Below, piece by piece: positions 8,859-58,074 of a DNA stretch of 64,000 nucleotides. The notes under the pieces are model-generated. The model was not told where the DNA came from. It made no database searches and saw nothing but the letters and a program-made list of their open reading frames with translations. The DNA lies in NCBI RefSeq assembly GCF_024502345.1, contig NZ_JALDNN010000001.1; one strand, written 5' to 3'. The stretch is from Escherichia coli (GTDB taxonomy: Bacteria; Pseudomonadota; Gammaproteobacteria; Enterobacterales; Enterobacteriaceae). The translations under genes and the position numbers were made by a program. The first letter of the stretch is position 1, and every line of letters starts with the position of its first letter.

Positions 8859-8874
8859 CTGTATAAATAAACAG
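8859..8874. promoter_or_regulatory. LexA box (CTGT-N8-ACAG) in the tisAB/istR control region
   Basis: CTGTATAAATAAACAG; on the minus strand it overlaps a TATACA -10 element that is 17 bp downstream of a TTGTCC -35-like hexamer. Confidence 0.7.
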
Positions 8875-8975
8875 TAATTTTTGGACAAAACGCAAACTGT
8901 GATCGATACTCAACTATGTACTAAATACGTCAAAATTCGTGCCGAAATTGCGCGTTCTGCGCGGAACAGGTATAC

Positions 8976-20436: not shown

Positions 20437-21627
20437 ATGAGTGAATTTATTGCCGAAAACCGCGACGCGGATGCCATCACCCGACCGAACTGGTCAGCCG
20501 TTTTCTCGGTGGCGTTTTGTGTCGCCTGTCTGATTATCGTTGAGTTTTTGCCCGTCAGTTTGTTGACGCCAATGGCCCAGGATTTAGGCATTTCGGAAGG
20601 GGTTGCCGGGCAATCGGTGACCGTGACCGCCTTTGTGGCAATGTTTGCCAGTTTGTTTATTACCCAGACAATTCAGGCTACTGACCGCCGCTACGTTGTT
20701 ATTTTGTTTGCCGTTTTGCTGACGCTCTCCTGCTTGCTGGTTTCCTTTGCTAACTCATTCAGTTTGCTTTTAATCGGTCGTGCCTGTCTGGGGCTGGCGC
20801 TGGGCGGGTTCTGGGCGATGTCGGCGTCGCTGACCATGCGTCTGGTACCACCGCGTACGGTGCCGAAGGCGCTGTCGGTGATCTTCGGCGCGGTTTCTAT
20901 TGCGCTGGTGATTGCCGCGCCGTTGGGCAGTTTTTTAGGCGAGCTTATCGGTTGGCGCAATGTCTTTAATGCGGCGGCGGTGATGGGCGTGCTGTGTATT
21001 TTCTGGATTATCAAATCATTGCCTTCACTGCCAGGCGAACCCTCGCATCAGAAACAAAATACTTTCCGCTTATTACAACGTCCGGGTGTGATGGCAGGGA
21101 TGATCGCCATCTTCATGTCTTTCGCCGGGCAGTTTGCTTTCTTCACGTATATTCGCCCGGTGTATATGAACCTGGCGGGATTCGGCGTGGATGGCTTAAC
21201 GCTGGTGCTGTTGAGTTTTGGTATCGCCAGCTTTATTGGTACGTCGCTTTCGTCGTTCATTCTTAAACGTTCGGTAAAACTGGCCTTAGCAGGCGCGCCG
21301 TTAATACTGGCTGTGAGTGCGTTGGTACTGACGTTGTGGGGAAGCGATAAAATCGTTGCTACCGGCGTGGCGATTATCTGGGGGCTAACTTTTGCATTGG
21401 TTCCCGTCGGCTGGTCAACGTGGATCACCCGCTCGCTGGCCGATCAGGCAGAAAAAGCCGGGTCTATTCAGGTGGCGGTTATTCAGCTTGCTAATACCTG
21501 TGGCGCGGCAATCGGCGGTTATGCGCTGGATAATATTGGTCTGACTTCGCCGTTGATGTTGTCCGGCACATTGATGTTGCTGACTGCATTGTTGGTTACT
21601 GCAAAGGTGAAAATGAAGAAATCCTGA
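20437..21627 (+). CDS. nepI: MFS purine ribonucleoside efflux pump
   Basis: Start trimmed to [10 protein letters not shown], giving 396 aa; MFS topology. Confidence 0.9.
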
Positions 21628-51601: not shown

Positions 51602-53989
<2,388 letters not shown>

Positions 53990-54280: not shown

Positions 54281-54592
54281 CTATTTTTTCTCTGTAATTT
54301 TTACACTGTTTTCCAACTGCTTAATGCTGACCTGCGGGGTCGGCAACTCCTCAGGCATGGTTCCGCCAAGTTCCTGAATGGTTTGCCTCACCTTGCGACC
54401 TACGTCAAAGTGTGTGGTGTTAGCTTGCTGTTTTGAATTCACGCCATCCCGCTTAAGTTTTTCTTCTGTTTGGGTAGCTACTTTGAACCGGATAACCTCG
54501 AATGGGTGACTGGTGAGATTGGTGCGCCGCCGTTCGATGTGTCGGGTGTGGCCTACCTGCTTCATGGCATGGTGTCGTTCGATAAGCGCCAC
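54281..54592 (-). CDS. small ORF of uncertain reality; its C-terminal ~60 codons look protein-like and may be the remnant of the gene displaced by the islet
   Basis: GTG-initiated 103-aa ORF with a charged C-terminus (TQTEEKLKRDGV...GGTMPEELPTPQVSIKQLE); its 5-prime half overlaps a plus-strand ORF. Confidence 0.3.
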   Translation of the reverse strand: MALIERHHAMKQVGHTRHIERRRTNLTSHPFEVIRFKVATQTEEKLKRDGVNSKQQANTTHFDVGRKVRQTIQELGGTMPEELPTPQVSIKQLENSVKITEKK

Positions 54593-54858
54593 CAGATCGA
54601 ATCAACCCGGCGCACACTGGAAAGCATGGTTGCTGGTGGACTGCTTGAGCGGGTGACAGTGTATGAATCGCGCCAGATACGGCGCGGCGGTGAGACTAAC
54701 GCAACGGTCGTGCGCTACGGTTTACCCGGTCAGTGCGCTGTTATGCGCGATACTGGCGGCGCTGATAGCCTGGCTGATTCCGGTAATACTGCGGAGTTAG
54801 GTCTACCGGCATAGCTTACCCGTGGAGAAATGAATCATCGAATGAGTTTGGTCGGGAG

Positions 54859-55539
54859 TTATTCCACCAGCAAAAATGGCGTTGCCCGGTCTATGACGTT
54901 GATGCCAATTAACGAGCTAACATTTCGACCATTCACAATGCTATCCCGTTCAAGCAAATGCGCTATTTTTTCTACTTCATACCAGTATTGAGCCATGAGG
55001 GCTTTGGTCTTTTCAACGAGTTTAGAAAGCATTAACTCCCTGTTAATTTGCTTATTTGTAGCGCAGATTAAATCGAGCATGTCATTTACGTTAGCCATGT
55101 CATAGCGATGAGGTAGCGAATACTTTTTGTTGAAAATATCGTTGTTTTCGTAAAGGGCTTCGCTTACTGGTCCGGCGAGGGATACAAAAGCGGCCTTTTT
55201 TGCATCGCGCTTTATACCATCCGCATAGTAACGTATGAAAGGGATAACTTTACCATTCTGCCCAACTACACCAGATTTACTATCCCGCAAACGCCCGAGA
55301 TCGTGGCTGTGAATTATGCTGTGTTTAACAACGCCCAAACACTTGGCCTCATGTACATGTTCGCCAGCAACGTAACCGTATTCATCCATAACGGCGATAA
55401 CAATATTGGTTTCACGCCCACCGATATGACCAGGAATAACCGGGACAATTGTGGCAAATTCATTACCGTTAATTGTGCCCTGATAGGCGTTCAGATGAGG
55501 GGCGGCCTCAGAAATTAATCTGCTTTTTTCGATGTTCAT
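54859..55539 (-). CDS. hypothetical protein (226 aa, His-rich central segment), cargo of the integrase islet
   Basis: Clean ORF with a TAA stop; contains HVHEAKC and HSIIHSHD segments; no family recognised. Confidence 0.5.
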   Translation of the reverse strand: MNIEKSRLISEAAPHLNAYQGTINGNEFATIVPVIPGHIGGRETNIVIAVMDEYGYVAGEHVHEAKCLGVVKHSIIHSHDLGRLRDSKSGVVGQNGKVIPFIRYYADGIKRDAKKAAFVSLAGPVSEALYENNDIFNKKYSLPHRYDMANVNDMLDLICATNKQINRELMLSKLVEKTKALMAQYWYEVEKIAHLLERDSIVNGRNVSSLIGINVIDRATPFLLVE

Positions 55540-55761
55540 TTTCAGTCTCCGTTAGGCGGCGGTGAGATTGTCCGGGTACCACATGGTTGACACTTAGATC
55601 CAACACGTAGTCGTACCTATCCAGTGAAAACCATTCCATCACATCGCCGTATTTAGCCCGTTTCATAACGCCACCTTTTACGCTGCGCCTTATTTTGTGA
55701 TTGAGCCAGGCGGTAAGGCTTCCCGCTTTTCGCCCCGTCGGGCTAGACTCAATCTATTCAG

Positions 55762-57021
55762 TTAGTTCGCCCTTCTGAGAGGCGTCACGTTGTAATCTTC
55801 GCCCTTCTCCAGAGCCACCAGCAAGCCCGCCCACTGTGTTAACGCAGCCCGTCGCTCGTCAAAGTATTGGTGACGGTTATAAATCCCCTCTACGCCCTTA
55901 ATGCGATGATTGAGGCATCGTTCCGCCACTACCGGATCAACGCCCAGCGCTGCTAAATGGGTGCGGGCCGTGCGTCGGAAGTCGTGAATCGTGAAATTAG
56001 GCACATCCGGCATTTCGGCGCGAACCTTAGCCAGTGCTACGGGCAGGGTGCTTTCCTGAATATGGGGGATCATGCGGTTTTGCATCTTTCTGGCTGGCAG
56101 TACCCATGCGCTGTTGCATGAGAACGTTTTAAGCTCTCTCAGCCATTCGACGGCTGGCGGTGCTAATGGGATGTCTATAGCGTCGCCGTTTTTGCTGCGT
56201 TCCTCTGGCAAGCGCCATACGGCTTTATCAAAATCGAACTCCTCCCAGCGGGCGGCGCATAACTCCATTTTGCGGACGCATAACGCTAACAGTAATTTGA
56301 ACGTGATTTCGTTCTGGCGACTGAATCCCTTAGCCGTGCGCATGGCTTTGAATAGCTGGATTAACTCATCGCGGGTTAACCAGCGGTCACGGGCAACTTC
56401 TTTCCCTCCGGCGTCTGCCACCTCAAAGGCTGAACAGGGGTTAATCTCCAGCGCGTGCCGTTTGATTCCGTAGTCGAATATGCGGCGCGTCCATCTCAGC
56501 ACGTCCGTTGCTATGGTCGGCGCTCCACGGTCAACAATACTTTTCAGCATGTCGTCGATATGGCGCGGCTTCACGTCCTCTACCTTCATGCTGCCAATGC
56601 AGGGGTTTATATCTTTGTCGATACGGCGGCGGAGTATATCTGGGTGCTTCCAGCGCGGCAGGATCTGACGCTCAAAGTATTCAGCGGCAAGCTCTGAAAC
56701 GCGCATGGCATTCTTCTCTGCTTCGATCTTCGCCAGTGCTTCGGCTTTCCGTTCCTGCTTCTCTCCTGCAACGTCATAGCCCAACGCAACGCGAGCCGAT
56801 AGCTCTTTGGCTGTCTCTCTGGCCTTTGATAGTGATAGCTCGGCATATGAGCCGATAACCATTGCTCGCTGCTTACCTGCGAATTTATAGCGAAAGCGCC
56901 AGAAAGGGACTGTGTAGTTTTTGGGGTAGCAAATATAAAGGCCGTTGCCATCGGCCCTTCCTTCAAATCTATCTCCGGCCTTTATCCATGCGCGGATCTG
57001 CATGTCTGTAATCTTTGGCAT
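55762..57021 (-). CDS. P4-type tyrosine integrase
   Basis: N-terminus MPKITDMQIRAWIK..GLYICYP is typical of the arm-binding domain; C-terminal catalytic HDFRRT..Y residues; start trimmed from 57057. Confidence 0.85.
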   Translation of the reverse strand: MPKITDMQIRAWIKAGDRFEGRADGNGLYICYPKNYTVPFWRFRYKFAGKQRAMVIGSYAELSLSKARETAKELSARVALGYDVAGEKQERKAEALAKIEAEKNAMRVSELAAEYFERQILPRWKHPDILRRRIDKDINPCIGSMKVEDVKPRHIDDMLKSIVDRGAPTIATDVLRWTRRIFDYGIKRHALEINPCSAFEVADAGGKEVARDRWLTRDELIQLFKAMRTAKGFSRQNEITFKLLLALCVRKMELCAARWEEFDFDKAVWRLPEERSKNGDAIDIPLAPPAVEWLRELKTFSCNSAWVLPARKMQNRMIPHIQESTLPVALAKVRAEMPDVPNFTIHDFRRTARTHLAALGVDPVVAERCLNHRIKGVEGIYNRHQYFDERRAALTQWAGLLVALEKGEDYNVTPLRRAN

Positions 57022-57048
57022 TGCGAATACCTGAACATTGAATGGGGG

Positions 57049-57102
57049 TGTGTACATAAACCGATGTACATAAAACCCATTATGTACACCACTATGTACA
57101 CG
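57049..57102. repeat. four TGTACA palindromic iterons upstream of the islet integrase
   Basis: TGTACATAAA, TGTACATAAA, TGTACACC and TGTACACG spaced 12-17 bp apart. Confidence 0.6.
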
Positions 57103-57210
57103 GCAATCGTGCGCTTTGTTGCTTCCTCATGATAGCCCATGATAACAAAAAAGCCCGACAAAATGCGGGCTTTGCTGGTTTTGTGTATCTTTGTGATAGC
57201 TCTTAAATAT

Positions 57211-58074
57211 TTACTCGATATTCTGAATCTGCTCGCGCATCTGCTCAATCAACACTTTCAGCTCAATCGCGGAGTTTGTCACTTCGGCATTGATAGACTT
57301 CGACGCAAGAGTGTTCGACTCGCGGTTGAACTCCTGCATCATAAAGTCCAGACGACGACCAACGGCTTCTTTTTTCTTCAGAATGTTGTAGGTCTCTTTG
57401 ACATGCGCTTCGAGGCGGTCCAGCTCTTCGGCAACGTCAATTCGTTGTGCCAGCAGAACCAACTCCTGCTCCAGACGGTTGTTTTCCAACTGCACCTGAG
57501 CATCTTCCAGCTTCGCGACCAAGCGTTCACGCTGCCATTGCAGGATTTCCGGCATATGGGAGCGGACTTTGACCACTTCGGCGGTGACGCCTTCCAGACG
57601 CTGCTCGATCAATGCTTTCAGTGCCTGACCTTCGGTTTCGCGCGCGACAATAAAGTCGTCCAGGGTGCCATCCAACGCCGCGAGAATTTCAGCGGCAATG
57701 GCGTCAAGATCCTGCTCCTGGGCTGCCATCACGCCCGGCCAGCGCAGAATATCAACCGGGTTGATTTCCCCTTCGTCACTCTGCATTTTTACCCAGTTCG
57801 CGGCAGTTACCAGCTGTTTAGCCAGTTTTTCGTTGAGGATCAGCTCACCTTGCGCGCTAACATCTGGCTCATAGCGCAGGGTACATTCCACTTTACCGCG
57901 CGTCAGGCGAGAACGAATACGCTCACGAACGACAGGTTCAAGGCTACGGAACTGCTCCGGCAGACGAAAGTAAGTTTCCAGATAACGCTGGTTTACCGAG
58001 CGCATTTCCCAGGTTGCGCTCCCCCATTCACCCTTGATTTCACGCCGGGCGTAGGCGGTCATACTGCGGATCAT
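57211..58074 (-). CDS. yicC: YicC-family stress-induced protein
   Basis: 287 aa, MIRSMTAYARREIKGEWGSATWEMRSVNQRYLE. Confidence 0.95.
   Translation of the reverse strand: MIRSMTAYARREIKGEWGSATWEMRSVNQRYLETYFRLPEQFRSLEPVVRERIRSRLTRGKVECTLRYEPDVSAQGELILNEKLAKQLVTAANWVKMQSDEGEINPVDILRWPGVMAAQEQDLDAIAAEILAALDGTLDDFIVARETEGQALKALIEQRLEGVTAEVVKVRSHMPEILQWQRERLVAKLEDAQVQLENNRLEQELVLLAQRIDVAEELDRLEAHVKETYNILKKKEAVGRRLDFMMQEFNRESNTLASKSINAEVTNSAIELKVLIEQMREQIQNIE

Follow-up and report, generated by a model that had tools for sequence, protein, structure and literature searches.

What purpose is served by four closely spaced copies of TGTACA that lie immediately upstream of the integrase gene (int) of an Escherichia coli genomic islet next to yicC? 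The initial annotation had counted four copies within 55 bp, and a string count over the window (the whole 64-kb stretch of DNA analysed) confirmed this, with copies starting at 57051, 57065, 57083, and 57095. Successive copies start 14, 18, and 12 bp apart, not 12–17 bp as had been given. The hexamer is present in the window at an ordinary frequency (12 copies versus 10.4 expected, four of the twelve in the cluster), whereas a Poisson estimate for at least four copies within a single 55-bp interval is ~5e-10, or ~3e-5 over the whole window.

Repeat units and the adjacent integrase

A repeat finder detected TGTACATAAA twice, at 57051 and 57065, and thus units longer than 6 bp, as well as a tandem 12-mer with copies at 57077–57088 and 57089–57100. 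The two repeat pairs are mutually inverted (GTGTACATAA and TTATGTACAC, 100% complementary). As predicted from sequence, the functional unit is an asymmetric, oriented 12-mer with the consensus GGTGTACMCAAA and not the 6-bp palindrome that had been proposed; since the sites read GTACCC or GTACAC in most relatives, the TGTACA palindrome of the present variant is incidental. Two of the 12-mers are on the plus strand and two, directly abutting, on the minus strand (Table 1). Together they occupy 27–81 bp upstream of the int ATG at position 57021, in accordance with their earlier placement just upstream of the integrase start. Two other readings of the cluster were discarded. Four direct GTACAC repeats, the first reading of an eight-sequence alignment, gave way to two forward and two inverted 12-mers in a wider sequence set scored with a strand-specific PWM, and a 12-bp terminator-like stem between sites D2 and P2 is a by-product of the inverted sites, with P2 often absent in relatives. 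That the repeats are not LexA boxes was correctly stated, as the pattern CTGT-N8-ACAG has no match within 56900–57300. The sole LexA-box-like pattern in the 64-kb window, at 8859–8874 (CTGTATAAATAAACAG), is unrelated to the repeat cluster. No Rfam families were found in 56800–57400.

The protein encoded by int contains the Pfam domains Arm-DNA-bind_3 (PF13356, residues 4–90, E 2.8e-18), Phage_int_M, and Phage_integrase. The N-terminal part shows homology to two arm-type binding domains of known structure, 3ju0 (E 6e-7) and 3jtz (E 1e-5), so that an integrase with an N-terminal arm-DNA-binding domain is encoded directly beside the repeats. The start at 57021 (419 aa) is conserved and is the RefSeq start of the 99% identical gene of E. 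coli ET979. The mechanical list of open reading frames begins int at an ATG at 57057, inside site P1 (431 aa), which is not the conserved start. The closest relative of Int in the phage collection is only 33% identical, and the Int of phage P4 shares 27% identity over the full length.

Table 1 Features of the att junction and the adjoining island sequence (positions in the window; PWM scores of the sites are from a matrix trained only on D1 and D2 of other loci)
Feature	Position	Strand	Description
Predicted arm-type site P1 (TGTGTACATAAA)	57049..57060	+	PWM 12.2 bits; closest to int ATG; inverted relative to D1/D2
Predicted arm-type site P2 (GATGTACATAAA)	57063..57074	+	PWM 12.2 bits; least conserved of the four
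Predicted arm-type site D2 (GGTGTACATAAT on minus strand)	57079..57090	-	PWM 14.0 bits; second of the abutting tandem pair
Predicted arm-type site D1 (CGTGTACATAGT on minus strand)	57091..57102	-	PWM 11.4 bits; first of the tandem pair, 12-nt direct repeat
Conserved block, CAACAAAGCGCAcGATT on int strand	57105..57121	.	Directly distal to D1; columns of 1.6–1.9 bits in Enterobacterales and Neisseriales loci
CATGATA, two copies 10 bp apart	57128..57144	.	Repeat finder; candidate RDF (AlpA-type) sites
Island-borne intrinsic terminator	57150..57173	-	Takes the place of the native yicC terminator
att identity block (core region), TTACTCGATATTCTGAATCTG	57211..57231	.	yicC stop codon and last six codons
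int, 419-aa tyrosine integrase	55762..57021	-	N-terminal arm-DNA-binding domain (Pfam, PDB)
Deletion junction, dinD 3′ remnant fused to first island ORF	54475..54480	.	blastn versus intact island; far att junction removed

Conservation of the sites in related loci and on the opposite arm

An integrase is present at this site in ~460 of 5426 complete E. coli genomes. In an alignment of eight diverged variants all four sites are kept, with no indels between them and with changed spacers. An ortholog scan restricted to one genome per species yielded 40 loci with Int identities of 62–95%, to which six E. coli variants were added (~45 in all). The 40 loci span Enterobacterales, Aeromonas/Tolumonas, Neisseriales, Methylocaldum, and Azonexus, and in nearly all of them int is located ~190–260 bp downstream of the yicC stop codon. 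The initial annotation had made its proposal dependent on conservation of the repeats upstream of orthologous integrases, and in the ~45 loci they are indeed conserved, at the same offsets. Read in int orientation, D1 lies at about −78, D2 at about −66, P2 at about −48, and P1 at about −34 from the ATG (−34/−35 at almost every orthologous locus); D1 and D2 point forward and adjoin directly, with a spacing of 12 bp in all loci, P2 and P1 are reversed, and D2 and P1 are 32 bp apart. The information content is 1.2–1.3 bit per column for D1/D2 and 0.8 for P1, compared to 0.05–0.2 for the spacers. P2, which is missing or degenerate in ~40% of the relatives, has 0.46 bit per column. With the PWM trained on D1/D2, 118 of 145 matches of at least 11 bits fell within 150 bp upstream of int, a region that makes up 1.5% of the 413 kb searched. 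Two Azonexus-type loci have GTGCAC in place of the GTACCC or GTACAC of most relatives. A chance occurrence of the cluster would agree with the ordinary number of TGTACA copies in the window, but given the clustering probability for the window and the conservation of the sites across orders of bacteria it is practically negligible.

Two further features were observed in these loci. The block directly distal to D1 (57105–57121), which reads CAACAAAGCGCA(Y)GATT on the int strand, is conserved as strongly as the arm sites and could be part of the int promoter (Pint) or a site for IHF or another factor. An extra match to the arm-site PWM (AGTGTACCTAYA) occurs ~2.85 kb downstream of the int start (+2830 to +2890), beyond alpA, in four loci of the Yersinia/Pantoea/Rahnella lineage (L028, L029, L046, L048).

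More distant relatives, with Int identities of 26–40%, have a tandem pair of sites spaced 12 bp apart (11 bp in L050) with the motifs GGTGGGCAAA, GTGTATCC, GGGGGCCA, and GTTGGTAT. Three of these loci have an inverted copy ~30 bp beyond the tandem pair; in the GGTGGGCAAA locus (L049), by exception, a direct third copy is present. Upstream of intA of the K-12 element CP4-57, TAGGCCCA is present twice, 12 bp apart, with an inverted copy 31 bp further on and 20 bp before the ATG. The sites are thus conserved with orthologous integrases, and the motif switches with the integrase lineage.

A second att copy was searched for up to 5 kb downstream of int in the 40 loci. None was found within this distance because the islands are longer, and complete E. 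coli islands were used instead. The intact islands of E. coli ET979, FLI21, NT1F10, and E597 carry a tandem pair 60–85 bp inside the opposite junction that agrees with D1/D2 in motif, 12-bp spacing, and orientation, and a tandem-island junction of Erwinia psidii likewise has a far-arm pair. Repeated sites that differ in sequence from the core are therefore present on both arms (L001, L061, L062, L063), the far arm being deleted in the window. Variant-specific bases agree between the two arms in E597 and not in ET979.

The yicC boundary and the state of the island

In E. coli ET979, the same int heads an intact island of 12.6 kb between dinD and yicC. Its genes alpA, antA, an icd-like gene, and one for a P4-type primase make up the gene set of Gram-negative PICIs (PMC6092414; bioRxiv 2022.07.18.500453). 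A 21-bp direct repeat, TTACTC(G/A)ATATTCTGAATCTG, marks the two island ends and consists of the yicC stop codon and the last six codons. This att identity block is duplicated at positions 8939–8959 and 21512–21532 of the ET979 locus (L001), and its counterpart in the window corresponds to the K-12 attB TTATTCGATGTTCTGAATCTG. In other islands the core copies at the far junction are cut short at their right side, and this locates the crossover close to the yicC stop codon. In K-12, both the sequence that immediately follows the yicC stop and its terminator are different, which assigns the hairpin at 57150–57173 to the island; in the intact ET979 island the native terminator is displaced and sits at the far junction. 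From the K-12 comparison and the displaced terminator it follows that integration takes place inside the 3′ end of yicC and that the island restores the end of the gene and comes with a terminator of its own. The island-supplied part comprises the last seven codons including the stop and the new intrinsic terminator (57150–57231). The initial annotation had set the islet boundary behind the yicC terminator, with the repeats just within it, which is wrong by ~60–110 bp, as the terminator is island-borne and the boundary is the core block in the last yicC codons.

Related islands differ in their surroundings. E. coli FLI21 (L061, 4804–6801) has two copies of dinD, one native and one just inside the far end of the island, which appears to carry a dinD homologue of its own. 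In Erwinia psidii (L044/L024) and also in L020, L037, L038, and L048, a degenerate yicC-end core replaces the full yicC upstream of int, pointing to tandem arrays of yicC-type islands.

The island in the window is a remnant of which ~2.7 kb are left. By blastn versus the intact island, 54000–54479 matches L001 6290–6768 and 54475–54767 matches L001 9196–9488. The far junction, alpA, and the primase gene are gone, and dinD is cut at 54479, leaving its last ~66 codons fused to the first island ORF. Without its other junction, the window copy is predicted to be a non-excisable remnant. With both the far junction and the RDF gene gone, the sites in the window are relics beside an apparently intact int. 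The rest of the islet (54475–55580) is a patchwork, in which 54768–55393 is without counterpart in the intact ET979 island and 55394–55578 is a fragment of the antA region. A 226-aa ORF at 54859–55539 gave only a marginal, apparently spurious Pfam match (RPN5_C, E 1.2e-4). Outside the islet, ligB (51688–53375) lacks 1 bp of an A-run at ~52714 compared with ET979 and reads as two ORFs of 347 and 215 aa; it is either a frameshift pseudogene or affected by a sequencing error.

Proposed role of the sites

We consider it very likely that the four repeats represent the int-proximal set of arm-type sites within the att site of a P4-family (Arm-DNA-bind_3) integrase. According to this proposal the island is a Gram-negative PICI-like satellite that would insert into the yicC 3′ end. 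Int would contact the 12-bp sites through its N-terminal domain, its C-terminal domains would at the same time bind and cut the core at 57211–57231, and DNA bending would allow Int to bridge arm and core and thereby form the recombination complex. The far-arm tandem pair, present in intact islands and deleted in the window, would complete this complex.

The attP arm repeats of phage P4 are reportedly to be credited to Pierson and Kahn (1987). The record of this phage (NC_001609) annotates 12-bp "attP arm sequence repeat" units. One inverted copy lies at the start codon of int, and of two tandem pairs one is ~112 bp from the core and the other ~53 bp from it on the opposite side. The yicC island has the same layout, with corresponding distances of 108 and 60 bp, and its integrase belongs to the same family with an Arm-DNA-bind_3 N-terminal domain. 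The two systems differ in their motif (TTGGGGGCAYA in P4 versus GGTGTACMCAAA in the yicC island) and in the number of inverted proximal sites (one annotated in P4, two in the yicC island). An intrinsic terminator inside the arm also distinguishes the yicC island, as does its target, the 3′ end of the protein gene yicC, whereas P4 targets a tRNA-Leu gene. P4 also informs the term "iteron" used by the initial annotation. Replication iterons would suit a cluster of short repeats in a mobile element whose intact form encodes a P4-type primase. The array is, however, located in the att junction beside int and not near the primase, the distances of the sites to the int start codon and to the core are constant in all relatives, and the ori and crr repeats of P4 are separate, differently annotated features, with the ori repeats near the primase and apart from the arm repeats. 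A role as iterons is thus extremely improbable and the term a misnomer for what are predicted att arm sites, not origin repeats. The same heterobivalent logic as in the proposed role is found in lambda Int, whose N-terminal domain recognizes sites on either arm (P1, P2, P′1–3) that differ from the core (PMC9791396). The N-terminal domain families of the two integrases proved unrelated at the sequence level in our searches, and number and spacing of the sites differ.

A second protein that could bind an att arm is the excisionase or recombination directionality factor (RDF) of the AlpA/Vis family, which would bend the arm and so favour excision. AlpA-family genes are located ~2.3 kb downstream of int in most of the related loci, and the notion that Int is the only protein common to all islands therefore could not be upheld. 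For AlpA, roles both as RDF and as activator have been described (bioRxiv 2022.07.18.500453). It is nevertheless improbable that the repeats are RDF sites. Such sites are as a rule direct repeats on a single arm with a spacing of one helical turn (PMC7498355) and would lie between the core and the arm-type sites, whereas the GTAC sites are of mixed orientation, spaced by 12, 18, and 14 bp, and carry the same motif on both arms of intact islands. The motif is also nearly constant while AlpA identity drops to 29–40%, and in EcCICFT073 AlpA is without effect on the int promoter (PMC6092414). Better candidates are nearby. Two copies of CATGATA, 10 bp apart, fit the description of RDF sites better than the GTAC sites do. 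Related TGATAGC/TGATAAC copies at 57130–57136, 57140–57146, and 57194–57200 flank the island-borne terminator, and in other lineages the equivalent positions on either side of the terminator are occupied by short repeats of different sequence, for example five copies of CACTCCG in Aeromonas (L022) and CGTGTCA in Neisseriales. The CATGATA pair and the related copies are candidate AlpA-type RDF sites.

An operator that plays no part in recombination and serves a dedicated repressor or a host transcription factor in the control of int would be consistent with the position of the repeats directly upstream of the gene, with their inverted arrangement and palindromic core, and with a weak promoter-like match that overlaps D1/D2. 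The core of many sites (GGTGTACACC) is palindromic and would also suit a dimeric regulator. Such an operator is still very improbable, as no repressor gene is conserved beside int, where the neighbouring gene varies, and as the motif follows the Int lineage and not the host (E. coli CP4-57, P4, and the present island each differ); it would also leave the far-arm copies, distant from int, unexplained. Of the three binders named by the initial annotation, the integrase is therefore best supported, while the motif on both arms and the P4-like layout speak against an excisionase and a dedicated repressor.

We infer from sequence that Int binds the 12-mers and that it regulates its own expression. 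As the sites fill the region 27–81 bp upstream of the ATG, bound Int would probably also repress its own promoter. That the arm sites overlap Pint and mediate negative autoregulation of int is quite possible, although we hold this view tentatively. The only sigma-70-like match (TTGCCG-16-CATAAT, 57106 to 57079) overlaps D1/D2, at chance level (one found, 1.1 expected) and with a −10 element that is not conserved in other variants. The geometry of int and att junction fits the autoregulation paradigm of KplE1 and P4. In KplE1 and further E. coli elements, integrase genes with an upstream region that overlaps the att junction were shown to be under negative autoregulation, and the same is predicted for this gene order (PMC2951348); for P4 Int, negative autoregulation is the conclusion given in the title of a paper cited in PMC7286903. 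As in the IntS/TorI module of KplE1 (CPS-53), target gene, att junction, and int follow each other in the same order and orientation in the yicC island, with arm-type sites between the core and the int ATG, and the intergenic region of ~190 bp is close to the 208–228 bp of the predicted autoregulated cases (PMC2951348). Integrase lineage and motif differ from KplE1, and autoregulation is experimental for IntS whereas for the Int of the yicC island we infer it. A more specific version, that the cluster is an int operator silencing an intact int in the junction-less remnant, with the rigid family-wide geometry (12-bp tandem pair, then an inverted site after 30–32 bp, shortly ahead of the ATG) reflecting a fixed architecture of Int, Int, and RNA polymerase, is rather doubtful. 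If true, the N-terminal domain sequences of thousands of P4-family integrases could reveal their arm-site specificity, and automatic prediction of att sites and of the ends of islands could become feasible.

Arm-type sites are a textbook feature, and the proposed role implies no new biology. PICIs and mobilizable islands are already known from the literature to use yicC as an integration hot-spot, and integration at its 3′ end is shared with yicC-targeting Gram-negative PICIs and with mobilizable islands such as MGIVflInd1 and IEEcoMOD1 (PMC8409611; bioRxiv 2022.07.18.500453). Intact relatives of the window island resemble PICIs further in carrying int, alpA, and a P4-type primase. The literature that we found on yicC-inserting elements is without description of the arm sites of their integrases. 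Our analysis gives a conspicuous repeat cluster a concrete proposed role and corrects the island boundary, with the crossover inside yicC and both the terminator and the rebuilt yicC 3′ end supplied by the island. The 12-mer motif and its fixed layout could mark the ends of yicC-inserted satellites and PICIs and, with lineage-specific motifs, this marker could extend to other P4-family islands.
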